A DNA stretch of 64,000 nucleotides from Candidatus Nanosyncoccus sp. (lineage in GTDB: Bacteria; Patescibacteriota; Saccharimonadia; Saccharimonadales; Saccharimonadaceae): NCBI GenBank assembly GCA_045603985.1, contig JAZUNE010000007.1, positions 23,202 to 87,201 of the forward strand, written 5' to 3'. Shown piece after piece: positions 1,888 through 60,897 of the stretch. The notes under the pieces were generated by a model that saw only the letters and a list, made by a program, of their open reading frames with translations, was not told the DNA's origin and did no database searches. The position numbers and the translations under genes were made by a program. The first letter of the stretch is position 1. The number at the start of each line of letters is the position of its first letter.

Positions 1888-4563
1888 ATGCTAAGGTTAC
1901 CTCAAAAATCTCTTCTAAAAACTCTAATTTTTAAAGTCGGATCTTTATCAATTTTAATTCTTCCTTGTTTTATTTTTGCCCTCTCTACTTCCGCTACCGA
2001 CGCCCTTAGGTTAACGATTAGTAGTAGTACCCTAGAATTAAACCTCATGCCCTTATCTTCAGACGGGGTATTCTCCTCTTCAGATAATTTAGACATTAGT
2101 GTAACTATGAATGTCATGGGTGGTTATACTTTAGGTATTAAAGGAGATAGTAGCTCTTCTAACCCTACTGCCCTAGTTAACACTACGGATAATAGTAAAT
2201 ATTTCTCTTCTATCTCTACTTCAGTCTCACCAGCTAACTATAAAGATAATACTTATGCTCTAGCTAATAATTTAAATAATACTTGGGGCTATCTACCAAG
2301 TAAATATAACTCTAACCTTAATACTAATTATCAACCAGCCCCTAGTTCTACAACTGGCGATATATTAGATACCGTTTCTAACTTTAGTGGTACGAATAAC
2401 TATACTATCTCCTTTGGTGCTAGAGCAAATAATACTACAACGATTGGCACATATGAAGGCACCTTCATTATTACAGCTGTCCCAACTATTACTTGTAACG
2501 CTAACGCTACAACCATTGGTGATGCAATCTGTATGCAAGATATGAACGACTCTGTTGCAACATCTATGGTAGAAGGAACGCAGTACCAACTTCTAGATAT
2601 TCGCGATAATAAGCTTTACTACATTGCGAAAATGAAAGATGGACGAGTTTGGATGACCCAGAACCTAGACCTAGACTTAATTAGTGACACTACCGCCGAC
2701 AACTATGTAGAATTAAATCATACTAATACCGATCTCGGTTGGACTACTAATGACACTACCGCTACTTGGGTACCAGCCAGTACTACATCCACCAATGCAG
2801 CGGATTGGGGTACTAATAATAACACCGCTCCAGCCTCCTATGATCCAGGTGACGCTTATTATTACTATGACAAAACTGCCGATATAACTACTGCTTACAA
2901 TAATACTACTGCTACAGCTGATTGTAATGCCGCTCATTCTGATGGTACTTGTGATCATTATCATGTGGGCAACTATTACAACTGGTCGGCAGCTGTAGCT
3001 ATGAACGATACTAGCTCTATTACTGATAATTATACTTCAGCTAATAATTCTATCTGTCCCGCTGGTTGGAGATTACCTGCCGGTAGGACTAGTACTACCT
3101 CCGGTAATCCAGGCTACTACTCTGAAATAAACTATACCTGGGTAAGTGAAGGCCTTGCTACTACCTACCAAGCTAACAATTTTGGCGCTACCTGGGGTGC
3201 TGATGGTTTTAAGAATATAAGAAGTAGTAATATGTATATGGTAGCTGCTGGTTATAAGAGCGATGAATCGTCCATAATTCACACTCCCCCCCGTGGCTTC
3301 TACTGGACTAGCACCAACACTACTAGCACTATGGCTTATGCCTCATATTATTATAATGACAATCTACATCCGGCTTATTCTAATAGCACTAATACCATTA
3401 AAGGCCGAGGCATGTCCGTCCGTTGTGCCGCTCGGCAATCTAATACCGGTTCTACTATAATTACCTTTGACGCCAACGAATCTACTACTACAACCGGTTC
3501 CTCTACCGGCTCTACCGCGAGTGCTACTATTACATCAAATACCTGGGGAACACTTACAACTAACGGTTACTCTATTTCTGGCTACTTCTTTACTGGTTGG
3601 AATACAGAATCTGATGGTAGCGGGACATCTTATGCTAATACTGCTCAATACTATGCTAAAGTCGGAACTGAAATTACTAATGTAACTCTTTATGCAATAT
3701 GGGAACGAATAATCGATATGACTACTGTCACGACCTCTGGCAATATTCCTAATAACTGCACAGACAATACCCCGGTAAGAAATCTACGACTCGTCTATGA
3801 CCCACGCGACAATGAGACCTACTGGATCGCGGAGCTTTGCGATGGAAAAATATGGATGTTGGATAACCTAAGGCTAGACCTAACTAAAGCCCTACCCAGC
3901 TATAGCGGTAGCGATAAGATTACCCTAACTACGTCTAATACTAATGCCAGCGGACAAGCTATTTCTTGTCTTACTACCGGCTCATATAACGGAGTAGCTT
4001 GCACAGGTCCCTATGCGACCTCCGCAGTAATTCAATCTACAAGTTGGGGAACTACCGGAACAGCCTATACTCAAGCAAAAATCAATAAAGACTATAGTGA
4101 AGATATTGCCCCAGTGACTTACGGTCAAGGCGACGGTAAAGTAGGTATATACTATAATTATTGTGCGGTTTCAGCCGGGTCATACTGTTACGCACAAAAT
4201 GCCGGAGTTGACATAACTAATAGTTGGCGTGATATAGAATCTGATATTTGTCCAGCCGGTTGGCGTTTGCCTACTGGCAATACTAATAGTGATGACAATA
4301 CTAGGATTACTGACTACGGAACTCTTTATGCGGCTTATAATAGCGATGCAACGATTGTTAGAAATACTCTCTCTACTCCTCTCTCCGGCTACTTCGTCAA
4401 TAACTCACAAAACACTCTTGGCGCACGCGGTTACCTCTGGTCTTCTACTTACAGCGATACTAACTTCATGTTTACTCTTAGTGTATATCCGTCCGACGTG
4501 TACCCATCTGGTACTAATTATCGGCACTACGGCTTTTCGGTTAGATGTGTCCTCGGTTCCTAA
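1888..4563 (+). CDS. Secreted protein with two FISUMP-type domains (Fibrobacter succinogenes major paralogous domain) and a Listeria-Bacteroides (Flg_new) repeat
   Basis: Signal-peptide-like N-terminus. The motif set D.RD..Y..A...G..WM..NL ... CPAGWRLP ... YW(S/T)S(T) ... G(M/F)SVRC occurs twice. GYFFTGWNTESDGSGTSY...TLYAIW lies between the two copies. Confidence 0.75.
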   Translation: MLRLPQKSLLKTLIFKVGSLSILILPCFIFALSTSATDALRLTISSSTLELNLMPLSSDGVFSSSDNLDISVTMNVMGGYTLGIKGDSSSSNPTALVNTTDNSKYFSSISTSVSPANYKDNTYALANNLNNTWGYLPSKYNSNLNTNYQPAPSSTTGDILDTVSNFSGTNNYTISFGARANNTTTIGTYEGTFIITAVPTITCNANATTIGDAICMQDMNDSVATSMVEGTQYQLLDIRDNKLYYIAKMKDGRVWMTQNLDLDLISDTTADNYVELNHTNTDLGWTTNDTTATWVPASTTSTNAADWGTNNNTAPASYDPGDAYYYYDKTADITTAYNNTTATADCNAAHSDGTCDHYHVGNYYNWSAAVAMNDTSSITDNYTSANNSICPAGWRLPAGRTSTTSGNPGYYSEINYTWVSEGLATTYQANNFGATWGADGFKNIRSSNMYMVAAGYKSDESSIIHTPPRGFYWTSTNTTSTMAYASYYYNDNLHPAYSNSTNTIKGRGMSVRCAARQSNTGSTIITFDANESTTTTGSSTGSTASATITSNTWGTLTTNGYSISGYFFTGWNTESDGSGTSYANTAQYYAKVGTEITNVTLYAIWERIIDMTTVTTSGNIPNNCTDNTPVRNLRLVYDPRDNETYWIAELCDGKIWMLDNLRLDLTKALPSYSGSDKITLTTSNTNASGQAISCLTTGSYNGVACTGPYATSAVIQSTSWGTTGTAYTQAKINKDYSEDIAPVTYGQGDGKVGIYYNYCAVSAGSYCYAQNAGVDITNSWRDIESDICPAGWRLPTGNTNSDDNTRITDYGTLYAAYNSDATIVRNTLSTPLSGYFVNNSQNTLGARGYLWSSTYSDTNFMFTLSVYPSDVYPSGTNYRHYGFSVRCVLGS

Positions 4564-4595: not shown

Positions 4596-6950
4596 ATGAA
4601 TAGATACGAACCGCTAAAAATTGAACAAAAATGGCAAAAAATTTGGGAAGAAGAGAAACCGTTTAAGGCAAAAGACGGCGAAGATAAACCAAAAATGTTT
4701 ATCGCCGAAATGTTTCCCTATCCTTCCGGCGCCGGCCTCCATGTCGGTCATGTCCGTAACTTTACTATTGTCGACGTTCTAACGCGGTTCTATTCTCAGC
4801 AAGGTCTAAATATCTTAAGACCCTTTGGTTATGATACTTTTGGTCTTCCCGCCGAAAACTATGCCATAAAAACCGGCACCGCCCCGCAAATAGTAACAAA
4901 AACTAATATTGATAATTTTAGAAAACAAGCAAAGCGTCTCGGTTATTTTATCGACTGGTCTCGCGAAATTAATACTTCCGACCCTGAATATTATAAATGG
5001 ACTCAATGGTGCTTTTTGCAACTTTATAAAAAAGGCTTGGCTTATCAAAAAGAATCTTATCAATGGTGGTGTCCCGAAGACCAAACCGTCCTTGCTAACG
5101 AACAAGTCGAAAACGGTAAATGTTGGCGCTGTGGAGCTGAAGTCGAAAAGAAAAAAATGAAGCAATGGTTCTTTAAAATTACCGAGTATGCTGATGAGCT
5201 CCTTTCCGAAATCGACGCTCTCGACTGGCCTGAGAAAATTAAAACTATGCAAAAAAACTGGATCGGTAAAAGTACCGGCGCTGAAATTGATTTTAAGATA
5301 ATAAACTCATCTAAAAAAATTAAGGTGTTTACTACCCGCCCCGATACTATTCTCGGAGCAACATTCTTAGTAGTAGCACCAGAATATCAAGGTTTAGAGT
5401 ACATCTTGGCAGATGATTGTAAAGAGGTGGTAAAAGAATATCAAGCAGCGGCTTTGAAGAAATCAGAGATTGAAAGACAGGAGAATAAAGAGAAGACGGG
5501 AGTGTTTACAGGGGCATACGCAGTAAACCCAGCGACGAAGGAAAAAATCCCGATTTATGTTGCTGATTACGTTTTAGCCGGTTACGGAACTGGAGCGATT
5601 ATGGCCGTTCCGGCCTATGACGAACGCGATCGTGAGTTTGCTGAAAAATTTAAGCTCCCAATTATCGAAGCTGAGTTAATTGACTACGACTTTTACGGAA
5701 CCCCTAAAACAATTTATAAAATGCGCGACTGGCTAATCTCTCGCCAACGTTACTGGGGCTGCCCGATTCCGATTGCTTACGATAAAAATGGCAATCCGCA
5801 TCCAATCCCCGAGGAACAATTACCTGTTCTTATCCCCGAAGTAGAAGATTATAAACCTGATAACTCTGGACACTCTGCTCTCGCAAAAGCGACCGACTGG
5901 CTAAAAGTGAAATTATATAATGAAGATACTGGTAAAATAGAGGAAATGACTCGCGAAACCGATACTTTAGATGGCTACGCTTGTTCAAGCTGGTATCTCT
6001 GGCGTTATGTTTCCCCTCATGACACTAAATCCGCTTGGAATCCCGAAGCGATTAAGTATTGGGCCCCGACCGATATTTATGTTGGCGCGGACCATGCTGT
6101 TGCTCATTTATTATATATTCGCTTTTGGTGTAAATTCTTTGCTGATGAAGGCTACCTTCCTTTCCGCGAACCAATCAAAAAGTTAATTTATCATGGCTAT
6201 ATCAACGCTCCCGACGGGAAAAAGATGAGTAAATCTAAGGGCAACGTCATCGACCCGCTTGACGTCATCAACGACGGCTACGGCGCCGATACTCTCCGTA
6301 CCTACGAAATGTTCATCGGCCCCGTCGAACTCGACGCTGCTTGGGACCCCCGCTCCGTAGGAGGAGTTTATAGATTCCTAAACCGTTGTTGGAATTTAGT
6401 GTTTGGGACGAACACCAATGTCCTTTCTCGGGGCATAAACGACAACGGGAGTTTACGAAGCGAGGAGCCCCGTAACGACGGGCGCGACGAAGCGTCCCGA
6501 GAAAGGAACATTGGTGTTCGACACAAGATTATCAAAAAAGTTACACAAGACATCTATAAATGCAACTTCAACACCGCTGTCGCAGCTCTTATGGAGTACG
6601 TAAACGAACTTTATAAAGTCGGCGCTTCCGAAGAAGACTTAATTGTTTTAGCAAAACTCTTAAAACCTTTCGCCCCACACCTCGCCTCCGAAATGCTTGA
6701 AAAATTAAATACAACCGACGAATGGCCAACTTGGGATGAAAAATATCTTATTTCCGATACTGTCGAAATCGTTGTTCAGGTTAACGGAAAACTTCGTGCA
6801 AAACTAACTGTAAATACCGAAGATCTCGATAACGAAGAAAAAATCATCACGCTCGCGAAAGAAGACGAAAAAATTAAAAAATATATTGAAAACGGCATAA
6901 AGAAAACTATTTTCGTTAAAAAAGCTAAACTACTTAATATAGTAATATAA
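4596..6950 (+). CDS. leuS: Leucine--tRNA ligase
   Basis: 784 aa with HIGH-type (PSGAGLHVGHVRN) and KMSKS (GKKMSKSKGN) motifs and LeuS-specific blocks. Leaderless start 7 nt after TATAAT (4583-4588). Confidence 0.97.
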   Translation: MNRYEPLKIEQKWQKIWEEEKPFKAKDGEDKPKMFIAEMFPYPSGAGLHVGHVRNFTIVDVLTRFYSQQGLNILRPFGYDTFGLPAENYAIKTGTAPQIVTKTNIDNFRKQAKRLGYFIDWSREINTSDPEYYKWTQWCFLQLYKKGLAYQKESYQWWCPEDQTVLANEQVENGKCWRCGAEVEKKKMKQWFFKITEYADELLSEIDALDWPEKIKTMQKNWIGKSTGAEIDFKIINSSKKIKVFTTRPDTILGATFLVVAPEYQGLEYILADDCKEVVKEYQAAALKKSEIERQENKEKTGVFTGAYAVNPATKEKIPIYVADYVLAGYGTGAIMAVPAYDERDREFAEKFKLPIIEAELIDYDFYGTPKTIYKMRDWLISRQRYWGCPIPIAYDKNGNPHPIPEEQLPVLIPEVEDYKPDNSGHSALAKATDWLKVKLYNEDTGKIEEMTRETDTLDGYACSSWYLWRYVSPHDTKSAWNPEAIKYWAPTDIYVGADHAVAHLLYIRFWCKFFADEGYLPFREPIKKLIYHGYINAPDGKKMSKSKGNVIDPLDVINDGYGADTLRTYEMFIGPVELDAAWDPRSVGGVYRFLNRCWNLVFGTNTNVLSRGINDNGSLRSEEPRNDGRDEASRERNIGVRHKIIKKVTQDIYKCNFNTAVAALMEYVNELYKVGASEEDLIVLAKLLKPFAPHLASEMLEKLNTTDEWPTWDEKYLISDTVEIVVQVNGKLRAKLTVNTEDLDNEEKIITLAKEDEKIKKYIENGIKKTIFVKKAKLLNIVI
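6409..6520. repeat. GC-rich palindromic mini-element (copy A), in frame inside leuS
   Basis: Terminal inverted repeats at 6409-6433 and 6496-6520 are 24/25 complementary. The core contains two tandem degenerate units (AACGAC..GGG..ACGAAGCG). Confidence 0.8.
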
Positions 6951-6951
6951 A

Positions 6952-7068
6952 GCAACCAGAATAACACCTTCTCGGCGACCTGCGCGACCAACGGGGAGCG
7001 CAAAGAGCAACTGAGCCATGTAACGACAGGCGCGAAGGAGCGTGCGCCGAAAGGTGTTATTTGGTTGC
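6952..7068. repeat. GC-rich palindromic mini-element (copy B), intergenic between leuS and the GT4 gene
   Basis: Inverted repeats at 6952-6977 and 7045-7068. The core shares GAGCC..GTAACGAC.GGCGCGA..AGCGT with copy A. Confidence 0.8.
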
Positions 7069-8280
7069 AACTTTATTATATATGTTAATAAATTTATCTA
7101 GCGTTTTTTCAAAATCGTGTTCTGAAGCGATTTCTTGAGACTTCTTTGAAAATTCTTTATAAAGTTTTACGTCCGATAATATTTTTATTATTGCCTCGCT
7201 AATTTCCTCAGCCGAACCCGGTTTACATAAAAATCCATTCTCTCCATCCCGACAAACTTCTCCTACCGCTCCTTTATCTACCGCAATTAAAGGTAGTCCG
7301 ACTGCCGCCGCTTCAATTAAAACAATCCCTTGCGTTTCTATTTCCGAAGCTGTTATAAAAACATCTCCGAGTTGATAAACTTTATAAAGTTCCGGCGGCG
7401 TAATCCGCCCTAAGAAATGGATGTCCGAACAACCTTTCGCTTTTTTCATTAATCGCGCCTTATCTACGCCATCCCCTACAATAATCAATTGTATTTCATT
7501 CATCTTTAGTTTTGCTTTCAAAAATGCTTCTATAACCGTTCCGACTTTTTTCTCCGGATCTAACCGCCCTAAGCTGAGTAAAGTTTTATATTTTTTATTT
7601 AATCCATATTTTTCATAAGTCTCAACCGAAGCGCGCCCTGGCTTAAAATTTGAAAGATCAACTCCGTTCGATACCGCCGCGACTGGAACCGAAAAATCTT
7701 CGCCTTTTCCAATTAGATTAAAAATCGCTTTTTCTGTCGGCATCGTTACAAAATCACTTTTACTCTGACGATTTCTAAAATAAGCTGAAAGAACTGCGTT
7801 AGCTCCTTTTTTTGCTAATTTTGGGAGATGAAAAGATTCCGTTAAAACCTCCGGTTGGTTATGTTCCGTTGTTACGACCGGAATTCCTCTTTTTTTCGCA
7901 TACGAGACAACCGACAGCCCAATCGGATCTGAAACCTGAACATGAACTAAATCCGGCTTAAAATCATCTAGGGCTTTTTTTATCTCTAATGCCGGAAAAA
8001 CCGATACTCTAAACCCATGTTTATACCATAATCGCGAAAAACCCTTCCGGCTTTTTGGCACAGGATGTATTTGGTCTGGGTAGACTTTCGCCTCAACCGA
8101 CTTCAAATAAACCGTCTTAACCCCGTCGACTACTCGCGTATAATTTTGCCCTGTTTGCGAAGGGCATAAAACTAAAACCTCTATCCCCCGCCTTACTAAC
8201 CCTACCGCAAGATTATGCGAAAAGACCGCTACTCCATTAATTTGCGGATAATATACTGCCGTCGCAATAACTACTTTCAT
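7057..8280 (-). CDS. Glycosyltransferase family 4 (GT-B fold)
   Basis: 407 aa. N-terminal MKVVIATAVYYPQINGVA and C-terminal E..GIVLIEAAAVGLP (EX7E-type) motifs. Confidence 0.8.
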   Translation of the reverse strand: MKVVIATAVYYPQINGVAVFSHNLAVGLVRRGIEVLVLCPSQTGQNYTRVVDGVKTVYLKSVEAKVYPDQIHPVPKSRKGFSRLWYKHGFRVSVFPALEIKKALDDFKPDLVHVQVSDPIGLSVVSYAKKRGIPVVTTEHNQPEVLTESFHLPKLAKKGANAVLSAYFRNRQSKSDFVTMPTEKAIFNLIGKGEDFSVPVAAVSNGVDLSNFKPGRASVETYEKYGLNKKYKTLLSLGRLDPEKKVGTVIEAFLKAKLKMNEIQLIIVGDGVDKARLMKKAKGCSDIHFLGRITPPELYKVYQLGDVFITASEIETQGIVLIEAAAVGLPLIAVDKGAVGEVCRDGENGFLCKPGSAEEISEAIIKILSDVKLYKEFSKKSQEIASEHDFEKTLDKFINIYNKVATK

Positions 8281-12538: not shown

Positions 12539-14860
12539 TTATAACATAAGTTCAATATGAAAAGTCATATTTTTCGATTTTTGGCCCTCTGCCTGATAAA
12601 TTGTTCCCGGCGTAATTTTAACATTCGGATATTTTTCCTCTACCTCTTTTAAAGTCTCCGCATAGCTTTTTTCCGTCGTTACCGTAAGATCTTCGTAAGT
12701 CTTTTTCGCAAAATCAATTTGTTTTTTATGCGACATCTTTTCTATTACTAAATCTAAATCAATCTCGAACCCCGCAAGGTATGGCGCTAACTTAAACTCA
12801 TTCCTCACCGAATTTCTAAACTCACCAACCACTCCAATATATTCACCATCTACTAAAATCTCTGCCGAACGTTTTTTCTCAAACGGCCTCGTTTCAGCTT
12901 CTCCTCCCTTAATCGGCAAAAATTCTACTAAAACCCCAAATTCCTCTAATAATTTTGCCGCGTATTTTTTCGCTTTATAAAATGCCGTTTCTTTATTCTT
13001 TCGTTCCGCAACGATAAATCCAAGCGACATTTTTTCTACCGGTACCCCCTCCTCATTCATCCCCCACTCTTTTCGATAAACTTTATTCATTTCATAAATT
13101 GCAAACTTCTCAACCGGCAATTTTTCATTTAAATACGTTTTATCTAATAAACTCGGTACAATCGACTGTCTTATATATTGCAACTCCGGCGAAATCGAAT
13201 TAACAATTTTGTAAGAATTATCGATATCCAAATTTGCCTTCTTCAAAAGCCTCTCGCTTACAAACGAGTAAGTTAAGACTTCATTTGCTCCGAGACTTGC
13301 CATTAAATCCCTAATTTTTCGCTTCAACTCGAACATTTCGTTTTTCGAAGCCGTCCCGTGAAGCGGTAAAATCGGCTCAATATTATCATACCCTAAAAGC
13401 CTACCAACTTCCTCAATAACATCTTCCTTAATATGAATGTCCGTTCGCCACTTTGGCACTTCTATTATTAACATCTCATCATCGACGGGTCCTGCCGGCG
13501 CGACATTAAAACCAACATTCCCCAAAGTTCTTACAATTAAATCCTTATCATACTTAGTTCCTAATAAATTATTTATCTCGTCTACGCTTATCGAAATATT
13601 TATTTCTTTCATCTTTTCCGGATATTCATCTGCTACCCCAACAACTTTAAACCCTTGAGAGAGCATTTCCGCGCAAGCTTCCGCTACTATTAAAGTTTGT
13701 TCCGCTGGTTGCCCCTTCGTAAACCTAGTAATTGCCTCGCTAAAAACCCCGTGCGCCATTTGTGTTTTTCGTAAATTATAAAGACTAAACGTCGCCGACT
13801 CTAAAATTATGTTCCGTGTATTTTCATCAATTGCCGTTGCTTTTCCACCCATCGCTCCCGCGAGCGCAACCGGCTTATCGCCCGAACAAATTACAATATC
13901 ATTCTCATTTAACTCGATTTCTTTATCGTCGAGTAAAATTAACTTCTCACCCTTCTTCGCCAACCTTACCTGAATTTCCGCTTTTCCCAAGCCTCCAACC
14001 GCAACAAATTTGTCATAGTCAAACGCATGAAGCGGCTGCCCCGTAAGAAGCATCAAATAATTCGTCGTATCAACAATCGGCTCAATCGGCCTCATCCCCG
14101 ATTTACTAAGAATCGTATCTTCCCACGTCAAATACTTCTTCTTCATCTCCCCGTGCTTCTCCATCACCACCGCCGAGTATCTCTGGCAAATACCAGAATC
14201 TGCAACTTTAATGGTTAAGCCATTCGGAATTTGATTAAATTCAAGTCCCGCTGAAGAAAAATCAAATTCGAATGGCTTACCTAAAATTCCCGCAACCTCT
14301 CTTGCGAACCCAATGATACCGAAGCAATCCGGCCGATGCGTTAAAGATTTATTCTCAATCTCTAAAACTAAATCGTTCAAATCAAACACATCCGCAAGTA
14401 AATCTCCCGGTTTCGCAACTTCCGGATCAATCTCAACAATCCCCGAATGGTCATCACCAAAATCTAATTCATCCGCCCCCGCAAGCATCCCACAAGATTC
14501 ATACCCCTGCATCTTTCGTTTACCAATTACAAAAGGCGCATCTTCATTCGCCGAAGCCGGAACAATCGCCCCCGGCTTGATCCAAACCGCAAGCATCCCC
14601 TCTCTTACATTTGGCGCCCCACAGACCACCTGAACTAAACCGCCATCCCCCGTATTAACCTGACATAGCGTCAAATGTGTCTCCGGAATCTTCTCCGCTT
14701 TCTCAACCCTTACTATAACAATATTATCGTATTTATGTGTTTCGTCTATCACCCCCTCAACTTCAACTAATCTAGCCCCTATCAATCTAATTAAATCTTC
14801 ATCCGAAACCGTTTCCGGAATTTTTACATATTTCTTTAGCCAATTCAAACTAATCTTCAT
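12539..14860 (-). CDS. pheT: Phenylalanine--tRNA ligase beta subunit
   Basis: 773 aa. N-terminal MKISLNWLKKYV tRNA-binding domain, with B3/4 and B5 blocks. Lies downstream of pheS. Confidence 0.95.
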   Translation of the reverse strand: MKISLNWLKKYVKIPETVSDEDLIRLIGARLVEVEGVIDETHKYDNIVIVRVEKAEKIPETHLTLCQVNTGDGGLVQVVCGAPNVREGMLAVWIKPGAIVPASANEDAPFVIGKRKMQGYESCGMLAGADELDFGDDHSGIVEIDPEVAKPGDLLADVFDLNDLVLEIENKSLTHRPDCFGIIGFAREVAGILGKPFEFDFSSAGLEFNQIPNGLTIKVADSGICQRYSAVVMEKHGEMKKKYLTWEDTILSKSGMRPIEPIVDTTNYLMLLTGQPLHAFDYDKFVAVGGLGKAEIQVRLAKKGEKLILLDDKEIELNENDIVICSGDKPVALAGAMGGKATAIDENTRNIILESATFSLYNLRKTQMAHGVFSEAITRFTKGQPAEQTLIVAEACAEMLSQGFKVVGVADEYPEKMKEINISISVDEINNLLGTKYDKDLIVRTLGNVGFNVAPAGPVDDEMLIIEVPKWRTDIHIKEDVIEEVGRLLGYDNIEPILPLHGTASKNEMFELKRKIRDLMASLGANEVLTYSFVSERLLKKANLDIDNSYKIVNSISPELQYIRQSIVPSLLDKTYLNEKLPVEKFAIYEMNKVYRKEWGMNEEGVPVEKMSLGFIVAERKNKETAFYKAKKYAAKLLEEFGVLVEFLPIKGGEAETRPFEKKRSAEILVDGEYIGVVGEFRNSVRNEFKLAPYLAGFEIDLDLVIEKMSHKKQIDFAKKTYEDLTVTTEKSYAETLKEVEEKYPNVKITPGTIYQAEGQKSKNMTFHIELML

Positions 14861-23201: not shown

Positions 23202-24692
23202 TTACAGGAGCGATTGCATATAAAGCATTAATTCTTCTTTTATAAAATCGTCCGTTACTTTCTCAAGCTCAACCATAAACTTCGGCGCCTGCCTCTTTAA
23301 TCGCTCCTGTCGATATTCCTCATATCGAGCCATTTCTTCTTCCGCTAATGTTTCCGGAAAATTTCGCCCCTTGTAATGAAGCAAAAGCTCCGGCAACCTC
23401 GGGTCATGAAACTCCGGATGAAAATCCGCTAGCTTGTTCACTTCTGCATTCCTTACCGCTGAAACCTTAACCCTGTCAGTATCGTCTAAAAACCCCTCAT
23501 ATAACGCCGTTTCCGGCTCAACTGCCGGCGGAAATTCCGGCCGATTTTCATATCCACTTCGCATCTGCTCCGCAAATTCCGGATGAGATAATAGTGCCTC
23601 TAAGTTCCTCTGCACTATCTCTTTCGTTAATCCAATCTTCCCCCAACCGCCATTACTTTCTAGCACACTTATCGGCGCCACGGCCGGACATTTATTGAAG
23701 CATAATTCTTTTACAATTGGGAAATATGATGAATGTGTGGCTAAAATCTGCTTTTTCTGAGACTTATTCTGATTTGAATTTTCAACACGTATATTCCTGA
23801 CGTGCCCGAGAGGTTCGTCCCGAAGGGACGGTTCTCCCGGTGCACCAGCGTATGACGTGCTTGAAAATTCAAGTCCTGTCGAAGAAAAAGCAGATTTAGC
23901 CATTAATTCATCAAAATTATATCTTAAATCATATATTAATATATTCCCATTCCGCGAGCTCGTAAGCGGAAAAGCTACGGTGGTTTTATTAAATTCCGAC
24001 GAATATCTCCCTGAAGCATAAACAAACGGCTTTTTATTATCTAGATTAACTAACTTCTTCACTTCTTTTTTATCCCGCATTTTATATAAATATTCGAACA
24101 GTTTCGGTTGCTTCTCTTTTACCATTTTCGCAACCGCAATCGTCGCATAAACATCCGAAAGCGCATCGTGCGCATGTTCATGTGAGAGTCCGTTTAATTT
24201 AGTTAATAATTCTAGCCGATTTGTCGCTTTCCCGTCTTCCGTAACCGGCCACTCTATCCCCTCCGGTCTAAGCGCCCGTGTTAACCTAACTACGTCTAGC
24301 ATGTCCCATCTCGACCGCCCCTCTTTCCACTCCCACTCATACGGATCATAAAAATTCCGCCATAAACAAGCCCGCATAAACTCATCATCAAATCTCACCG
24401 TATTATATCCAACCGCAACCGTCTCCGGTACAAAAATCTCCTCCGAAATATACCGACAAAATTCCGCCTCTTTTATCCCGTCCCTTAAGGTATCCTGCGG
24501 AGTAATCCCCGTTACATTAATTGCTGAAGGACTTGGCAAAGCGTCATCCGTCATTTTTACTAAAATATTTACCGGCTCCCCAATCGGCTCTAAATCTAAG
24601 CTTGTCCTCTGCCCCGCAAATTGCATAACCCGATCCACTCTCGGATTAAGCCCGCTCGTCTCTAAATCATAAAAGAAAAAACTTTTCCCCAT
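23202..24692 (-). CDS. sbcB: Exodeoxyribonuclease I
   Basis: N-terminal FFFYDLETSGLNP...QFAG DEDD exonuclease motif and the H..HDALSDV motif. 496 aa, including a 33-aa palindromic-element insert. Confidence 0.85.
   Translation of the reverse strand: MGKSFFFYDLETSGLNPRVDRVMQFAGQRTSLDLEPIGEPVNILVKMTDDALPSPSAINVTGITPQDTLRDGIKEAEFCRYISEEIFVPETVAVGYNTVRFDDEFMRACLWRNFYDPYEWEWKEGRSRWDMLDVVRLTRALRPEGIEWPVTEDGKATNRLELLTKLNGLSHEHAHDALSDVYATIAVAKMVKEKQPKLFEYLYKMRDKKEVKKLVNLDNKKPFVYASGRYSSEFNKTTVAFPLTSSRNGNILIYDLRYNFDELMAKSAFSSTGLEFSSTSYAGAPGEPSLRDEPLGHVRNIRVENSNQNKSQKKQILATHSSYFPIVKELCFNKCPAVAPISVLESNGGWGKIGLTKEIVQRNLEALLSHPEFAEQMRSGYENRPEFPPAVEPETALYEGFLDDTDRVKVSAVRNAEVNKLADFHPEFHDPRLPELLLHYKGRNFPETLAEEEMARYEEYRQERLKRQAPKFMVELEKVTDDFIKEELMLYMQSLL
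23774..23872. repeat. GC-rich palindromic mini-element (copy C), in frame inside sbcB
   Basis: Arms at 23774-23790 and 23855-23872 (TTGAATTTTCAA(G)CACGT) are 17/18 complementary. There is an inner CGTCCC-GAA-GGGACG hairpin. The length is 99 bp, or 33 codons. Confidence 0.75.
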
Positions 24693-43817: not shown

Positions 43818-44747
43818 ATGAATATCTGGGAGCAATTAGAGAAACCATTTTTAATATTGGCGCCGATGGAAGGTGTTACCGATGTCGTATTTCGTCAAGT
43901 TGTCGCAAAGGCCGGTCGACCAGATTTATTTTTTACGGAATTTACCAACGTATCATCTTACGCCTCGGAAAAAGGTCGTAGAAATGCTCTAGAACGCCTA
44001 GAAATCGCTCCTACCGACTCCCCTATCATCGCTCAGATTTGGGGCAAAAATCCGGAGCATTTTTCGGAAACTTGTCAGGCGCTTTCATCGCTCGGTTTTT
44101 CGGGCGTAGATCTTAATTTTGGCTGTCCAGATAAACATGTCAACAAAGCTGGCGGCGGAGCGGCAATGATTAAAACCCCGGAACTAGCTGTCGAATGTTT
44201 CAAAAATGCCAAAAAAAGCACCAATTTACCAGTATCCATCAAAACTAGGCTAGGTTGGTCTGATGTCAACGAGTACCAAGAATGGCTACCAGTTCTCTTC
44301 AAAGAACACCCCTCAGCCCTCACCATCCATCTCCGTACTCGAAAAGAAATGAGCAAAGTGCCCACGCATTACGAACTAATCCCGGCAATTCTAAAAATGC
44401 GAGACGAGCTTTCATCCGAGACAAAATTAATCATTAACGGCGATATTAAAGATAAAAAAATGGCACTCGAACTTCATAAAAAGTATCCCGAAATAGACGG
44501 TTTTATGATTGGTCGAGGCGTCTTCCAAAACCCTTACTGTTTTACGGACCATCAACCAACCAAGGAAGATTTAATGAAACTTCTAAAATTACATCTCAAT
44601 CTCTATAAATATGACAAATATGAGCCTCTGAAGCATTTTTATAAAATTTATATTAATAATTTTCCGGGAGCGGCAGATTTAAGAGCAAAGTTGATGGAAA
44701 CGCATTCAATAGAAGAGGCACGAACAGTATTAAGAAACATGATATAA
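43818..44747 (+). CDS. dus: tRNA-dihydrouridine synthase
   Basis: LAPMEGVTDVVFRQ, DLNFGCP and IINGDI motifs. Confidence 0.85.
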   Translation: MNIWEQLEKPFLILAPMEGVTDVVFRQVVAKAGRPDLFFTEFTNVSSYASEKGRRNALERLEIAPTDSPIIAQIWGKNPEHFSETCQALSSLGFSGVDLNFGCPDKHVNKAGGGAAMIKTPELAVECFKNAKKSTNLPVSIKTRLGWSDVNEYQEWLPVLFKEHPSALTIHLRTRKEMSKVPTHYELIPAILKMRDELSSETKLIINGDIKDKKMALELHKKYPEIDGFMIGRGVFQNPYCFTDHQPTKEDLMKLLKLHLNLYKYDKYEPLKHFYKIYINNFPGAADLRAKLMETHSIEEARTVLRNMI

Positions 44748-44759
44748 TAGAAGTGCTCA

Positions 44760-45169
44760 TGCTATACTTCGGTCACTGGCAATGAGAAAAGTTTCAAGGT
44801 CCCCGGTATTGTCATTTATGCCTCGGACTATGAGCCAATAAAACAGAGGCTCACATAAATGACTCTAATAATTTAATTAAAGGAGTCTTTTATGAAAAAC
44901 TTTAACAAAAATAAAACAGAACAAGTCGAAGTTATGGCGCTCTTCGGGTACGAAATGACGCCTTGCCAACCGCTGACTTTTCGGCGAAGAGGCGAGAGCG
45001 AGACCGAAGTGTCAGAGTTGCTCCGAACGCAAATTCGCTTTGCGGGTGGGGTAGCGATGCACATTTTCGACGTTCTGGTTGGTCGGGAACAAATGACGCT
45101 CGAATTCAATTCGCGCGATCTTTCCTGGCACCTCACACAATAGGAAACGGCCCTTCGGGGCCATTTTCT
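44760..45169 (+). other. GC-rich, hairpin-rich island containing an SD-led 83-aa ORF (44892-45143) and ending in an intrinsic terminator; coding versus structured RNA is unresolved
   Basis: TGCTATACT -10-like box at 44760-44768. Nested hairpins at 44813-44865. AAAGGAG lies 6 nt before the ATG at 44892. Three long ORFs overlap on both strands, so the island is stop-codon-poor. An 18-nt direct repeat sits at 44944-44961 and 45083-45099. Terminator GGCCC-TTCG-GGGCC plus T-tract at 45149-45169. Confidence 0.35.
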
Positions 45170-45186
45170 ATGCTATAATAATTATT

Positions 45187-46416
45187 ATGAAAATCGCAAT
45201 TTTAGGCTACGGTAAAGAGGGAAAATCCGTCGAGAAATATTTCAAAAAACATTACGATGATTTAGAATGTGATATTTTTGAAAACTTTACTTATGACGAA
45301 ATAAAACAAAAAGATTTTTCGTCCTATGATTTTATTTTTCGTAGCCCCTCTGTTCCTCCCTTAAATCTAGAAAACGAATCCAGCGTTACTAAATATTTTT
45401 TCAATCACTGTCCCTGCCCTATTATCGGCGTAACCGCTACTAAAGGAAAAGGAACTACCTGTTCATTTATTAAATCTCTTCTCGACGCCGAAAACTATAA
45501 TGCCTATCTTGTTGGGAACATCGGCGTTCCTGCTATCGATATCCTAGATGAACTAACCAAAAATTCAGTTGTCGTCTATGAACTATCTAGTTTTCAACTT
45601 TGGGATCTTAAAAAATCTCCTTCTGTCGCCGTTCTTGGCCATCTAGAACCTGACCATTTAAATGTCCATAAAGACTATACTGATTATTTAAATGCAAAAG
45701 AGCATATTACTAAGTTTCAGACCGAAAACGATTGCCTAATTTATAATAAAAATAATCCTGAAGCTACTAAAATCGCTAAAGATTCCAAAGCTAAAAAAAT
45801 CCCTTATCCTTTTAGTGTTCCCGGAGAGATTGAAAATTCTATCGCTCTCCCTGGCGAGCATAATTTAAATAATGCTGTAGCCGCTATCTCCGCTGTCGCT
45901 TCTTATAAAAATATTTCACCAGACGAATATATAAAAAAATATAAAAACGAAATTATAACAGGTTTAAGAAATTTCCATGGCCTTCCCCATCGTCTCGAAT
46001 TTATTCGCGAACTAAAGAATGTTAAATACTATGACGATAATTTCTCAACTAACCCTTCCTCTACCCGCGTCGCAGTAAACGCTTTTCCGAATGATAATAT
46101 TGTTATTATCCTCGGTGGTCGCGATAAAACCGACAACGAAGATTTACCCGAAATTTACGATATTCTTCAGTCTCCCCAAGTTAAAAAAATTGTCCTCATC
46201 GGCGAATCTGGCCACGCCCTCGCCGAAAAGTATTCCGACCCGCGTTTTATTTTAGCCGAATCTCTCGAAGAAGCTGTTAAAACCGCAAAGACCAAGGCCG
46301 AAAAAATCGCCCCCTCTATCCTTCTTATGTCCCCAGCCGCCGCTTCTTTCGATATGTTTGAAAATGTCTACGACCGCGGAGAAAAGTTTAAAAATTTAAT
46401 CTCGTTTCTAAACTAG
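45187..46416 (+). CDS. murD: UDP-N-acetylmuramoyl-L-alanine--D-glutamate ligase
   Basis: N-terminal ILGYGKEG Rossmann-like motif, Mur ligase P-loop GVTATKGKGTT and a C-terminal domain. Leaderless start 7 nt after TGCTATAAT. Confidence 0.8.
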   Translation: MKIAILGYGKEGKSVEKYFKKHYDDLECDIFENFTYDEIKQKDFSSYDFIFRSPSVPPLNLENESSVTKYFFNHCPCPIIGVTATKGKGTTCSFIKSLLDAENYNAYLVGNIGVPAIDILDELTKNSVVVYELSSFQLWDLKKSPSVAVLGHLEPDHLNVHKDYTDYLNAKEHITKFQTENDCLIYNKNNPEATKIAKDSKAKKIPYPFSVPGEIENSIALPGEHNLNNAVAAISAVASYKNISPDEYIKKYKNEIITGLRNFHGLPHRLEFIRELKNVKYYDDNFSTNPSSTRVAVNAFPNDNIVIILGGRDKTDNEDLPEIYDILQSPQVKKIVLIGESGHALAEKYSDPRFILAESLEEAVKTAKTKAEKIAPSILLMSPAAASFDMFENVYDRGEKFKNLISFLN

Positions 46417-58292: not shown

Positions 58293-58368
58293 GGTTCTGT
58301 AGCTCAGTTGGTAGAGCAGAGGCCTGAAGAGCCTTGTGTCGCTGGTTCAAGTCCAGCCGGAACCACCA
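58293..58368 (+). tRNA. tRNA-Phe (GAA), CCA encoded
   Basis: Manual cloverleaf: acceptor GGTTCTG/CGGAACC, D-arm GCTC/GAGC, anticodon loop CTGAAGA, T-arm GCTGG-TTCAAGT-CCAGC, then A plus CCA. Confidence 0.95.
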
Positions 58369-58388
58369 TTAAAAAATAGCGACTTTAT

Positions 58389-58465
58389 GGGCCGGTAGCT
58401 CAGCTGGTTAGAGCACGGGCCTTTTAAGCCCGGTGTCGAGGGTTCGAGCCCCTCCCGGCTCACCA
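58389..58465 (+). tRNA. tRNA-Lys (UUU), CCA encoded
   Basis: Acceptor GGGCCGG/CCGGCTC, anticodon stem CGGGC/GCCCG with loop CTTTTAA, T-arm GAGGG-TTCGAGC-CCCTC. Confidence 0.95.
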
Positions 58466-58482
58466 TATCGTCGCTTTGCCTC

Positions 58483-58559
58483 GGGCGGTTAGCTCAGTTG
58501 GCTAGAGCGTTTCTTTGACGTAGAAAAGGTCAGAGGTTCGAATCCTCTATCGCCCACCA
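58483..58559 (+). tRNA. tRNA-Val (GAC), CCA encoded
   Basis: Acceptor GGGCGGT/ATCGCCC, anticodon stem TTTCT/AGAAA with loop TTGACGT, T-arm AGAGG-TTCGAAT-CCTCT. Confidence 0.93.
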
Positions 58560-59097: not shown

Positions 59098-60876
59098 TCA
59101 TTTTTCTTCTAAAAATGCCCCGCTTTGTCTCGACCACAATTTTTCATATTCTCCGCCTTGAGCCAATAATTTTTTGTGCGTACCTTGTTCTACAATTCTT
59201 CCATCATCTAATACTACAATCTCGTCTAGCCCGGCAATCGTAGATAATCTATGGGCAACAACAATAGAAGTTCTTCCCTGCATCAAATTAGATAGAGCCC
59301 CCTGTATTAAAGCTTCCGACTCCGAATCTAAAGCCGAAGTCGCTTCGTCTAAAACTAAAATTGGCGCATCTTTTAATATTGCCCGCGCAATTGCAACCCT
59401 CTGCCTCTGTCCACCAGACAATTTTACGCCCCGCTCCCCCACCATCGTGTCATATCCATCCGGCAATTCCGTGATAAACTCATCCGCATTAGCAAGCCGC
59501 GCCGCCTCATGCACCTCTTCAATCGTAGCCCCCGGCTTCCCGTACGCAATATTCTCAAACACACTCCGATGAAATAGTGATGACTCTTGTGGTACATATG
59601 CAATCGCCTCGCGCAAACTCTGTTGCGTCACATCCCGTATATCTTGCCCATCTATATAAATTGCCCCGCCCGTCACATCCGCAAATCTCAATAATAACTT
59701 CGTTAATGTTGTCTTACCAGACCCGCTCACCCCTACTAGCCCGACACTCTGCCCCGGCTTAATTTTCAAAGTAAAATCATTAAATAACGCTGTTTTTTGT
59801 TCATCATGCTGAAAAGAAATATGCGAAAAATCAATCTCCGCTTGTGATATCTTTAATGGTTTATCCGTTTTATCGTCAATAATATATGGCATGTCTAATA
59901 TCTCTACCATCTCCTTCGCATTACCAAACGACCGATTTATAGCTCTTAAAATATGGTTAATTGTCCAAACATTAGACAGAAGCGAATTTGATAAAGAATA
60001 TAAAAATACCATATTTGCTATTGTTAACCCAAACAGATCATGCCCCATTACAATTAATATTAATAATCCAGCAAAAGTTATCATATTTACCACGTTCATC
60101 GATAAATTTCGCCCAAACGACACTTTGGCTACATTAAAAGTCGCCTCTTTTGTTCGTTTCGTCGCTCTCTCAAATCTCGTTTCTTCTAATTTTTCCCGCG
60201 CATATGATTTTACTGAAAGCTCATTCGTAATTGCATCCGCAAGTTGACCCGTCTGTTTATTATCAGCCTCAGCTAACGCTTCGTCCACATATCGCGTCTT
60301 ATAATAAGTTAAAATCGCTACTGCCATATAAATTATTGCATATATGGCTAAGATTCCAGCAAATGGGACACATACCATCGCCGTTACTACAATCGAATAG
60401 ATAACTGTCAGCGCTAAAGGATAAATATCCCAAATAAAATTAGATTTTAAATCAATAAAAGCATTTGGTAATTTATTTGCTTGCGACGTTAAGGAGCCTG
60501 AAAATCGATTTGAATGAAATGTCATTGATTGATTTATTACTGCCCTAAATGCAAGTTGTGATAAATATTCTCCACACTTTGCATCTAAAGACCAATCTAA
60601 CCAATCAATCGCTCGAATTATTGCTAAGTTGTTTACGCCCGCTGATAAAATTGTTAACAATAATATACTCGTATAATTTTGCAACTCAAAATCTCCGCTC
60701 GATAGTTTCCCAATAATTTCCGACGTCCCATACGGAACCACTACGTTAGAAATAAAAATCCAAACCGGCACCAAAATTAACGCTAAAATCGTCCGTATTT
60801 TGTACCGCATCAGCGCTTTCCAAAAATAATATAGCGTCCGCTTTATATTGCCAAGTTTCTTTTTATTTTTACCCAT
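59098..60876 (-). CDS. ABC exporter, fused permease/ATPase (MsbA/type I exporter-like)
   Basis: 592 aa with a six-TM N-terminal domain. Walker A GVSGSGKTT, signature LSGGQRQR, Walker B LVLDEATSALD. Confidence 0.9.
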   Translation of the reverse strand: MGKNKKKLGNIKRTLYYFWKALMRYKIRTILALILVPVWIFISNVVVPYGTSEIIGKLSSGDFELQNYTSILLLTILSAGVNNLAIIRAIDWLDWSLDAKCGEYLSQLAFRAVINQSMTFHSNRFSGSLTSQANKLPNAFIDLKSNFIWDIYPLALTVIYSIVVTAMVCVPFAGILAIYAIIYMAVAILTYYKTRYVDEALAEADNKQTGQLADAITNELSVKSYAREKLEETRFERATKRTKEATFNVAKVSFGRNLSMNVVNMITFAGLLILIVMGHDLFGLTIANMVFLYSLSNSLLSNVWTINHILRAINRSFGNAKEMVEILDMPYIIDDKTDKPLKISQAEIDFSHISFQHDEQKTALFNDFTLKIKPGQSVGLVGVSGSGKTTLTKLLLRFADVTGGAIYIDGQDIRDVTQQSLREAIAYVPQESSLFHRSVFENIAYGKPGATIEEVHEAARLANADEFITELPDGYDTMVGERGVKLSGGQRQRVAIARAILKDAPILVLDEATSALDSESEALIQGALSNLMQGRTSIVVAHRLSTIAGLDEIVVLDDGRIVEQGTHKKLLAQGGEYEKLWSRQSGAFLEEK

Positions 60877-60897
60877 ATATGTTATTATATAATATAT

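Follow-up and report, generated by a model that had tools for sequence, protein, structure and literature searches.

A probable family of selfish palindromic elements lying in frame in leuS and other genes of Nanosyncoccus-type Saccharibacteria

The hairpin element in leuS

The leucyl-tRNA synthetase gene leuS lies at positions 4596..6950 (+ strand) of a 64-kb stretch of DNA from Candidatus Nanosyncoccus sp. (contig JAZUNE010000007.1, positions 23,202 to 87,201), the whole of which is called the window here. Its open reading frame (ORF) encodes 784 aa, and the best match of the product in the PDB is T. thermophilus LeuRS (1h3n, E = 1.6e-187). Within the gene, at 6409..6520 (+), lies a 112-nt imperfect palindrome, a complete hairpin element in frame with leuS, which we call copy 1 (family A). 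An earlier note, made from the sequence of the window alone, had described it as a palindromic insert resembling in its behaviour the Rickettsia palindromic elements (RPEs), and had proposed one further copy and possibly a second. The comparisons described below make it likely that copy 1 is one member of a small, non-autonomous family of selfish palindromes in Nanosyncoccus-type Saccharibacteria. All of the evidence is computational, and was drawn from metagenome-assembled genomes (MAGs) and metagenome contigs.

The two arms of copy 1, 6409-6433 (CGAACACCAATGTCCTTTCTCGGGG) and 6496-6520 (CCCGAGAAAGGAACATTGGTGTTCG), were both found as the earlier note had placed them, and they pair with one bulge. 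A 131-nt segment spanning copy 1 has a predicted folding energy of -64.1 kcal/mol, compared with -35.6 ± 3.5 kcal/mol for dinucleotide shuffles of the same segment (z = -8.1); none of 200 shuffles was as stable. The opposite strand folds nearly as stably. When the minimum free energy (MFE) of sliding 130-nt windows was scanned, with correction for GC content, across the whole 64 kb, no site stood out more strongly than that of copy 1. Two more outliers were clearly hairpin elements; these, at 6941-7070 and 23771-23900, correspond to copy 2 and to a third element in sbcB, both described below. Weaker outliers were a GC-rich intergenic segment at 44961-45090 and a short, AT-rich, terminator-like hairpin at 60851-60980. 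The contrast in composition that had been claimed for the element is borne out, with a GC content of 0.59 in copy 1 against a mean of 0.41 for the window, and the leuS frame is open straight across it, as had also been claimed.

Copy 1 can be divided into nested parts. The right outer arm (AACATTGGTGTTCG, 6507..6520, +) is host-derived: it encodes the conserved residues N-I-G-V-R and aligns with alleles of leuS that have no insert (empty alleles). The left outer arm (6409..6422, +), which encodes TNTNV, is an inverted duplicate, in reverse complement, of the host codons at 6507-6520, and is without counterpart at that position in empty alleles. Inside these lie two semi-conserved terminal repeats, CCTTTCTCGGGGC on the left (6422..6434, +), with the motif yCTTyTCGrGGrGC that is found beside the core in most copies, and GTCCCGAGAAAGG on the right (6494..6506, +), which also recurs across copies. 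The core between them consists of two hairpins that both carry the motif CGAC(N)ACGGG. Hairpin 1 (hp1; 6436..6455, +) was defined from the fold and has a variable stem and a loop of the form GACrACGGGA (CGACAACGGG in copy 1). Hairpin 2 (hp2; 6465..6487, +) carries the family signature GAGCCCCGTAACGACGGGCGCGA, recurs across copies, and is read as EPRNDGR in the leuS frame. These are the two degenerate tandem units that had been noticed earlier, and they are indeed related. The LeuS peptide encoded by the insert includes SEEPRNDGRDEASR. The number of added residues had been overestimated at about 37; compared with empty orthologues the net gain is 72-84 nt (24-28 codons). The right outer arm AACATTGGTGTTCG is host sequence for a conserved N-x-x-[IV]-R block.

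Searching the window with Rfam 15 gave matches above the gathering threshold only to three tRNAs, which form a cluster at 58293-58556. In the region 6380-7100 the best sub-threshold match was to a plant miRNA precursor, with 24.8 bits against a gathering score of 100; this match reflects generic hairpin similarity.

Filled and empty sites, host genes and reading frames

To compare leuS between relatives we used 80 orthologous loci, one genome per species, all from Candidatus Saccharibacteria or Ca. Nanosyncoccus and mostly from the ruminant gut (individual loci and copies are cited by L numbers). Protein identity was 71-83% and gene length 2247-2580 nt. The protein alignment revealed two insertion hot spots. 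Site 1 (5295..5318, +), after residue 239 of the window protein, is a loop flanked by GAEIDF and KITVFTTRPDT where the chain enters the editing domain. The window has no insert there; about 27 of the 80 relatives have one, either in full or as a short remnant. Site 2, after residue 611, is the site of copy 1. It is occupied in 37 of the 80 loci as well as in the window and empty in about 43. The segment from VYRFLNR to KKVT spans 93-123 nt where the site is empty and 147-366 nt where it is filled. The empty alleles include those of L006 and L008, whose proteins are 81-82% identical to that of the window, and of Ca. Nanosyncoccus alces (L023). The conserved N-x-x-[IV]-R block is kept in filled and empty alleles alike.

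Nearly all filled site 2 alleles fold into a long hairpin. The site 2 inserts belong to at least six sequence families, several of them unrelated, which also occur at site 1 and are present in both orientations; the peptide SSRPSLRGSS, for example, is the reverse-strand reading of the element type in the window. Partial deletions and arms-only remnants are frequent in LeuS (L010, L033, L063, L014, L031, L039).

In the LeuRS enzymes of T. thermophilus and E. coli the site 2 linker contains about 30 aa of native sequence, against which HMMER aligns the insert. This might be taken to mean that the extra peptide is an ancestral, LeuS-specific insertion in which the inverted repeat is incidental. 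The native segment is unrelated to the element, however, and the site is empty in relatives at 81-82% identity; moreover, many other genes contain the same DNA core, as does copy 2 just past the end of leuS, and the fold energy (z = -8) also speaks against this reading. An ancestral origin, to which we give next to no chance, is refuted by the pattern of presence and absence together with the multi-gene distribution. The alignments thus indicate that the site 2 hairpin is an insertion, because close relatives are empty and the same core is found in unrelated genes.

A different kind of length variation was observed in more distant LeuS orthologues (L074-L080). At alignment columns 478-517, following window residue 359, five of these carry a conserved 39-aa segment (…CY.GEG..VNSG.F.G…) and the others are without it. 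In appearance this is a domain segment of the usual lineage-specific kind and not a hairpin insert.

The third hairpin of the window (23744..23897, no strand assigned; fold z = -8.0) is nested and lies in frame in sbcB (23202..24692, - strand), which encodes exodeoxyribonuclease I (ExoI; 496 aa, Pfam RNase_T and Exonuc_X-T_C). Its outer inverted repeat, 23744-23763 and 23878-23897, carries TTTTTCTGAG, which resembles a terminal inverted repeat. The inner hairpin at 23771-23875 belongs to a different family (F), unrelated to the outer repeat, and a second DNA copy of this inner type was found at L115:4582-4672. The earlier note had proposed a possible copy of the leuS element at 23774-23872. 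The sequence relationship does not hold, since there is no similarity to the leuS element, but the feature is of the same kind in being an in-frame insert in sbcB.

Homologues of ExoI (cited by P numbers) range from 427 to 519 aa, and their variation is concentrated at a single hot spot between YDLRYNL and FPIVKELC. This site is empty in P0024, P0036 and P0076, contains the window type of insert in P0003-P0009, and contains the hairpin-2 family, read in the SPVTTGA frame, in P0016 and P0092. The closest relative, P0002, has an arms-only remnant. In P0008 (519 aa) a second insert, VDQSSAGRRLDTKRKRFVHSAPTA, is nested in the sbcB insert at alignment columns ~315-340, which shows that elements can insert into one another.

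The distribution of the family of copy 1, referred to as the hairpin-2 family, was determined by an exact-pattern scan of metagenome contigs with the 23-nt motif GAGCCCCGTRAMGACGGGCGCGA. The conserved core, made up of the hairpin GAGCCCCGTnAnGACGGGCGCGA and a second hairpin, was present in at least 120 contigs. A copy was called intragenic when it lay in an open frame of at least 150 codons, of which no fewer than 20 flanked the insert on either side. By this definition 94 of 111 non-redundant copies (85%) were intragenic, among the matches listed with enough flank. When the insert was masked, the host ORFs of the listed matches fell into 34 gene families, led by class I aminoacyl-tRNA synthetases (aaRS; 14), MnmA (9), Obg (8), TatD (8) and methylase-like proteins (8). 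RecX, MiaA, FemAB, ArgRS, PheT, TruB, Dus, FtsJ, pseudouridine synthase, PolA, GatA, FtsK and an EF-Tu-type GTPase were also represented. MnmA again has two hot spots, with some alleles empty at one and filled at the other. The further copies that the earlier note had thought worth seeking are therefore numerous, and most of them lie in coding sequence. No copy of the core was found in a collection of viral contigs, and a search of the window with the inner repeat alone (CCTTYCTCGG) gave matches at chance level.

Aligned in register on hp2, the copies share an hp2 that is nearly invariant. Its closing base pair covaries (CG 24, UA 7, GC 6, UG 3). In hp1 the conserved loop (GACrACGGGA or GACGG) is carried on many different complementary stems, giving 96 different stem/loop combinations. 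The inner repeat, yCTTyTCGrGG ... CCyCGArrAAGr, is semi-conserved, and the outermost 10-25 bp differ in every copy. The mobile core, with its two hairpins, measures about 65-75 nt. Whole hairpins span about 90-190 nt, with 122 nt as the median length. Main stems reach at least 10 bp in 96% of copies, and their median is 23 bp. RNAalifold applied to a MAFFT alignment of 44 diverse copies recovered only hp2 and its covarying closing pair. Conservation of structure was therefore judged copy by copy and on four orthologous copies, because the variable stems cannot be aligned by sequence. The same architecture occurs in independent MAGs and metagenomes, and an assembly artefact was rejected on these grounds.

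The core is rich in GC and free of stop codons in five of its six frames. In the sixth, TAA or TGA falls in the invariant hairpin (CCG TAA or CCG TGA). Among the matches listed, the ORF-internal copies are read in the frames EPRNDGR (37), SPVTTGA (28), SRPSLRGS (16), APVVTGL (6) and RARRYGA (7), and none of the 94 uses the sixth frame; the probability of this under uniform frame use is ~4e-8. An open frame is kept through the insert in all 80 LeuS alleles. Avoidance of the stop-bearing frame implies that the inserts are probably translated.

Precedents exist for removal of such an insert before or during translation, which would leave the protein unaltered. Long perfect stems are reported to trigger inverted-repeat-dependent excision of transposons from animal mRNAs (PMC12779559), and in the mitochondrion of a yeast, Magnusiomyces, ribosomes are reported to bypass GC-rich palindromic inserts known as 'byp' elements (PMC6649704). 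Either arm-triggered RNA excision or ribosomal bypassing would impose no constraint on internal stops, so neither accounts for a frame that is used by 0 of 94 copies while the other five are all used, or for an open frame kept in every LeuS allele and in 94 of the 111 other copies (among the matches listed in both counts). We regard removal as very unlikely, and read-through as the simplest explanation.

The peptides encoded by the inserts are rich in Ser, Arg, Pro and Glu, and 30% of their residues are hydrophobic, compared with 43% in the host proteins. An AlphaFold2 model of the window LeuS, made with 53 homologues, had a mean predicted local distance difference test score (pLDDT) of 74.6. 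Residues 607-632 had a pLDDT below 50, and were modelled as a loop between the helices 588-603 (RFLNR...) and 630-654 (...KKVT...). In the model, therefore, copy 1 appears to add an extra surface loop to LeuS, as the earlier note had wondered.

Outer arms, the terminator copy and neighbouring hairpins

The right arm of copy 1, AACATTGGTGTTCG, aligns with AACGTTGTCATTCG, AATATTATTATCCG and similar sequences in the empty alleles L008, L039, L017 and L006. Overlap of the arms with conserved host codons is common among filled LeuS alleles. Of the 36 filled site 2 alleles that show a clear stem, 31 have a 3′ arm ending within the conserved NxxIRHKTI codons. At site 1 twenty filled alleles have a clear stem; in 12 of them the 5′ arm begins inside the universally conserved GAEI[DE]F codons, and in 14 the 3′ arm ends no more than three codons from VFTTRPDT. 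In one clade ATAGAGTTT (I-E-F) at site 1 pairs with AAACTCTAT (N-S-I), at a place where other species have P-K-I, which implies that one arm was rewritten to complement the other. Taken together, the alignments indicate that the outer arms are at least partly host sequence, one arm being host and the other its inverted copy.

The arm pair ATAGAGTTT / AAACTCTAT is common to L021, L022, L034, L046, L057, L063, L064 and L073. The cores that it encloses belong to three different families; L063 has a stump, and L021 is without a core. This suggests that cores have been replaced, or have inserted repeatedly, within arms that persisted.

The evolution of arms and core was followed in four orthologous copies (window, L002, L003 and L005). 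Half of the stem pairs (13 of 26) vary between them. Eight of these 13 show compensatory double changes, one shows a one-sided change with pairing kept, and four are broken in some sequence. The arms have diverged about as much as the host flanks, with pairwise identities of 0.73-0.75 and 0.69-0.70 respectively, and the core is 0.90 identical.

A core that is better conserved than the host codons around it, and compensatory changes that preserve pairing of the arms, would also be expected if the hairpins were not selfish at all but served the host as functional cis-elements. They might be mRNA structures that adjust the translation or decay of housekeeping genes (RNase III sites or ribosome pauses), or DNA structures bound by a host protein. 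A conserved hp1 loop on variable stems is likewise typical of a hairpin recognized by a protein, and the host genes mostly encode RNA and translation enzymes. On the other hand, presence at the same site differs among close relatives, with many alleles empty or decayed. The same core is found in 34 unrelated gene families (among the matches listed) and at intergenic terminators. Unrelated families occupy the same site in either orientation to transcription, which a function of the sense-strand RNA would not tolerate, and the mRNA sense strand has no strand-specific G-U signature. A host function thus seems unlikely to us, and a selfish family remains the preferred reading.

Counts of mismatches were also considered as a sign of a strand-specific single-stranded intermediate. 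On the plus strand of the element G.T mismatches in the stems at first outnumbered A.C mismatches by 53 to 17. With stems taken from folding of the opposite strand the numbers were 37 and 26 (p = 0.2), and the proposal was dropped. There was no excess of G.U on the mRNA sense strand.

For 70 of 127 copies, an unrelated gene contains a copy to which the core is at least 90% identical, a sign of recent spread. Stems are longest in these copies, with a median of 24.5 bp compared with 18 bp in the most diverged (Spearman 0.24, p = 0.006). Since the youngest-looking cores have the longest stems, the long host-derived arms appear to be present early and to decay later, and gradual growth of the arms with age is unsupported.

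Host-derived arms that evolve in concert are what arm-to-arm template switching yields (PMC6649704, PMC13100816, PMC8604942), and the palindromes might have been made locally in this way without any mobile element. As an account of the whole structure we consider this highly improbable. An identical 23-nt hairpin with the same flanking architecture is found in at least 120 contigs and 34 unrelated families, and the near-identity of most cores to copies in unrelated genes (the 70 of 127 above) points the same way. The presence of the same core at many loci rules out local generation of the core. For the arms, template switching is part of the explanation that we favour, in which a mobile core acquires a host-derived stem.

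Copy 2 (6952..7068, +; fold z = -6.5) is a slightly decayed, intergenic member of the same family, starting 1 nt after the leuS stop codon. Its core is 79% identical to that of copy 1 over 42 nt, with the core motif matched exactly, and the suggestion of a related copy at this position was correct. Its hp2 (GAGCCATGTAACGACAGGCGCGA, 7013..7035, +) differs from the consensus by one compensated pair and one mismatch. The right arm (7053..7068, +) overlaps the convergent glycosyltransferase-like gene (7057..8280, - strand), the last three codons and the stop codon of which lie inside the arm.

At the same position between leuS and the glycosyltransferase gene, two relatives have an intrinsic terminator: AATAACCCCC-TTAA-AGGGGTTATT in L008 and AATAATCCCC-TTAA-GGGGATTATT in L023, each followed by a T-run and each with the glycosyltransferase stop codon within its right arm. 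The left arm segment of copy 2 (AATAACACC, 6960..6968, +) is orthologous to the left stem of these terminators, and GGTGTTATT (7053-7061) to the right stem. The stem of copy 2 extends further outwards, with TTGGTTGC (7061-7068), which encodes the glycosyltransferase C-terminus ...ATK* on the minus strand, pairing with GCAACCAG (6952-6959). As judged by this orthology, the core of copy 2 takes the place of the terminator loop, and one copy thus sits at the apex of a pre-existing hairpin. Some intergenic copies in the metagenomes are flanked by A-runs and T-runs (L101, L195, L117).

Other hairpin families, mostly intergenic, were detected in an ungapped palindrome scan of the few kilobases flanking leuS in the relatives; such a scan misses bulged copies and so undercounts. 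Two copies of one family, with 26-bp arms and the AT-rich core GGCCTCCAAAAT..AAAGCCC.AA.GGG.ATTGAC, lie at L042:5386-5502 and L042:6223-6337. Both are intergenic and unrelated to the hairpin-2 family, and one directly follows the leuS stop codon. A second intergenic family (core ..GCCGCCGTAGGGGCGAAGC..) was found in different species at L048:5298-5427, L069:2814-2948 and L071:2814-2948, with opposite orientations at the same position in L069 and L071. In L065, 1545-1635 and 1649-1725 are adjacent tandem copies of a short GC-rich hairpin element (core CTTCCTCGGCTGTCGTCGCTCGCAAACTCGC..).

Elsewhere in the window, an intergenic gap of ~440 nt (44750-45186) separates a Dus-like ORF (43818-44747) from a MurD-like ORF (45187-46416). 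It contains the weaker MFE outlier at 44961-45090 (-54.5 kcal/mol, GC 0.57), which had no Rfam match even at permissive thresholds; a decayed element, or a structured RNA that has escaped annotation, would be possible identities. At 14216-14279 a spacer of 32 nt separates the two 16-nt halves of an inverted repeat (TAAGCCATTCGGAATT / AAATTCGAATGGCTTA). Just upstream of leuS, an 891-aa ORF at 1888-4563 is rich in Thr, Ser and Asn, with an N-terminus like a signal peptide and internally repeated segments ending ...GFSVRC. Its product is probably a surface protein.

Mechanism, known counterparts and meaning

The core is flanked by inverted and not by direct repeats. On average the best direct repeat around an element measured 1.69 nt, compared with 1.48 ± 0.12 nt in shuffled pairings, and no direct target-site duplication was found around the hairpins. 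[quoted passage not shown]

From these data we infer the following pathway. The conserved hairpins would be recognized by a factor acting in trans, and the core would insert at the apex of a hairpin or at a nick, or would itself create an apex by inserting. Fold-back DNA synthesis, by snap-back or template switching, would then copy one flank in inverted orientation, completing or extending the stem. Copying of 10-25 nt of host flank in this way would give every copy a stem built from host sequence, and no direct target duplication. Later templating of one arm on the other, or selection for pairing, would hold the arms complementary. Template switching between the arms of inverted repeats is known to homogenize and expand them (PMC8604942, PMC13100816). 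The intermediate may be DNA or RNA, as both fit the data. Survival within genes would be favoured by a GC-rich core without stops in five of the six frames and by the hydrophilic nature of the encoded peptides. Copies would persist in permissive surface loops and linkers, where they would be translated as an additional loop of low order. Copies have come and gone repeatedly at such sites, and partial remnants have been left behind. Mobility in trans, through a factor recognizing the conserved hairpins, is the step that this pathway presupposes.

Several observations weigh against a mobile selfish family of this kind. Neither a transposase nor any other mobilizing enzyme was identified, and the window showed no autonomous partner of the elements. 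The lack of direct target duplications is a further such point. The fold-back model alone leaves unexplained why no extra copy of an arm is found at the terminator apex occupied by copy 2. A core identity of 0.90, where the neighbouring host codons are ~0.70 identical, may mean that the core has a host function. The predominance of intragenic copies applies to the hairpin-2 family, the other families near leuS being mostly intergenic, and the case for translation is made from frame statistics. Finally, the short palindromes in some "empty" alleles (L057, L021) may be excision footprints, so that the change at some sites may have been loss rather than gain.

The closest resemblance is to the RPEs, repeated palindromes of ~100-150 bp in a host-dependent bacterium with a reduced genome. 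RPEs are in-frame insertions in many housekeeping genes of such a genome (PMC10969869). Both they and the elements described here form stable hairpins (z = -8.1 for the 112 nt of copy 1; family medians of 122 nt and a 23-bp stem), lie in frame in many unrelated housekeeping genes, are apparently translated, and are tolerated by the fold of the protein. There are also differences. The likeness rests on behaviour and not on sequence, and the host here belongs to the Saccharibacteria, in the candidate phyla radiation (CPR). About 85% of hairpin-2-family copies are intragenic (among the matches listed), in five frames, whereas about half of the RPEs of R. conorii lie in ORFs (PMC10969869). The identity of RPE repeats has been described as declining with time (PMC6649704), while here the outer stems are locus-specific and host-derived, with pairing kept (8 of 13 variable pairs compensatory). 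In addition, several families here occupy the same hot spots repeatedly. The RPE-like behaviour noticed in copy 1 is supported by in-frame insertions across the 34 gene families and by the empty alleles of relatives. By analogy, the family may be regarded as a behavioural counterpart of the RPEs; that it belongs to them is unlikely, given the host.

Classical MITEs (Correia, ERIC/RU, Nezha, QMITE and others) are comparable in that they are small and non-autonomous, exist in multiple copies, and have terminal inverted repeats as well as a stable hairpin; they too occasionally form in-frame fusions with host ORFs (PMC10969869, PMC2759123). The elements described here differ from them in having no direct target-site duplication, in an outermost stem that, unlike the semi-conserved inner repeat, is different in each copy, and in being mostly intragenic. 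Arms derived from the host and held in pairing by compensatory change, together with the missing target-site duplication, set the family apart from RPEs and classical MITEs alike. The coding palindromes of Nematomorpha mitochondria are likewise long inverted repeats within genes, with both arms coding and kept complementary, and template switching or arm conversion has been proposed for them (PMC6649704). They have no shared mobile core or dispersed family, unlike the two-hairpin core found here at the apex across genes and species. REP (repetitive extragenic palindromic) sequences and REPINs, with their RAYT enzymes, offer a parallel in hairpin repeats of ~100 nt with conserved hairpins that a single-strand-specific enzyme would recognize in trans (PMC3333891, PMC2817692). 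In contrast to a family that is 85% intragenic with locus-specific, untagged arms, REPINs lie outside genes, show conservation along their full length, and are headed by GTAG/CGTC.

Insertion sequence (IS) elements that target palindromes, for example those that insert into REP sequences, provide a precedent for insertion at an apex (PMC1525189), and copy 2 resembles them in lying at the apex of a hairpin that exists in relatives. They are autonomous, with a transposase and defined target motifs, and differ in this from a non-coding core of ~70 nt. That old hairpin sites have received further insertions, some of them nested, hints at an attraction of insertions to palindromes, and the few cases available are compatible with a targeting of hairpin apices.

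In the full-text literature on Saccharibacteria, Patescibacteria and CPR, which was covered incompletely, we found no description of such elements, and a family of in-frame palindromic elements is apparently undescribed in CPR. We further propose, tentatively and at somewhat less than even chances, that the elements represent an undescribed class of mobile DNA suited to life inside coding genes, with a ~70-nt two-hairpin core, an enzyme acting in trans, and stems made from host sequence by fold-back synthesis.

To our knowledge, Rickettsia has until now been the main source of examples of selfish DNA lying in frame in essential genes. A rich and apparently active counterpart in CPR means that host-dependent genomes reduced independently of one another show the same phenomenon. 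Stems that derive from the host and co-evolve, and the absence of target duplication, point to a non-standard mechanism of insertion or maintenance. Since they cover dozens of species and more than one hot spot in a gene, with alleles that are filled, empty or decayed, the elements form a large natural data set that could be used to study the tolerance of proteins to random loop insertions, the gain and loss of inserts, and the seeding of new protein segments. In practical terms, marker proteins in CPR MAGs (aaRS, Obg, MnmA and others) become longer and more variable in length through the inserts, with consequences for alignments, for phylogenomics and for the prediction of structures. Essential mRNAs also acquire long stems that form double-stranded RNA. 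Recurrent gain and loss, with remnants left behind, changes the loop lengths of housekeeping proteins, and if the elements do represent a new mobile class, they would be a major continuing source of loop and linker variation in the housekeeping proteins of Saccharibacteria.

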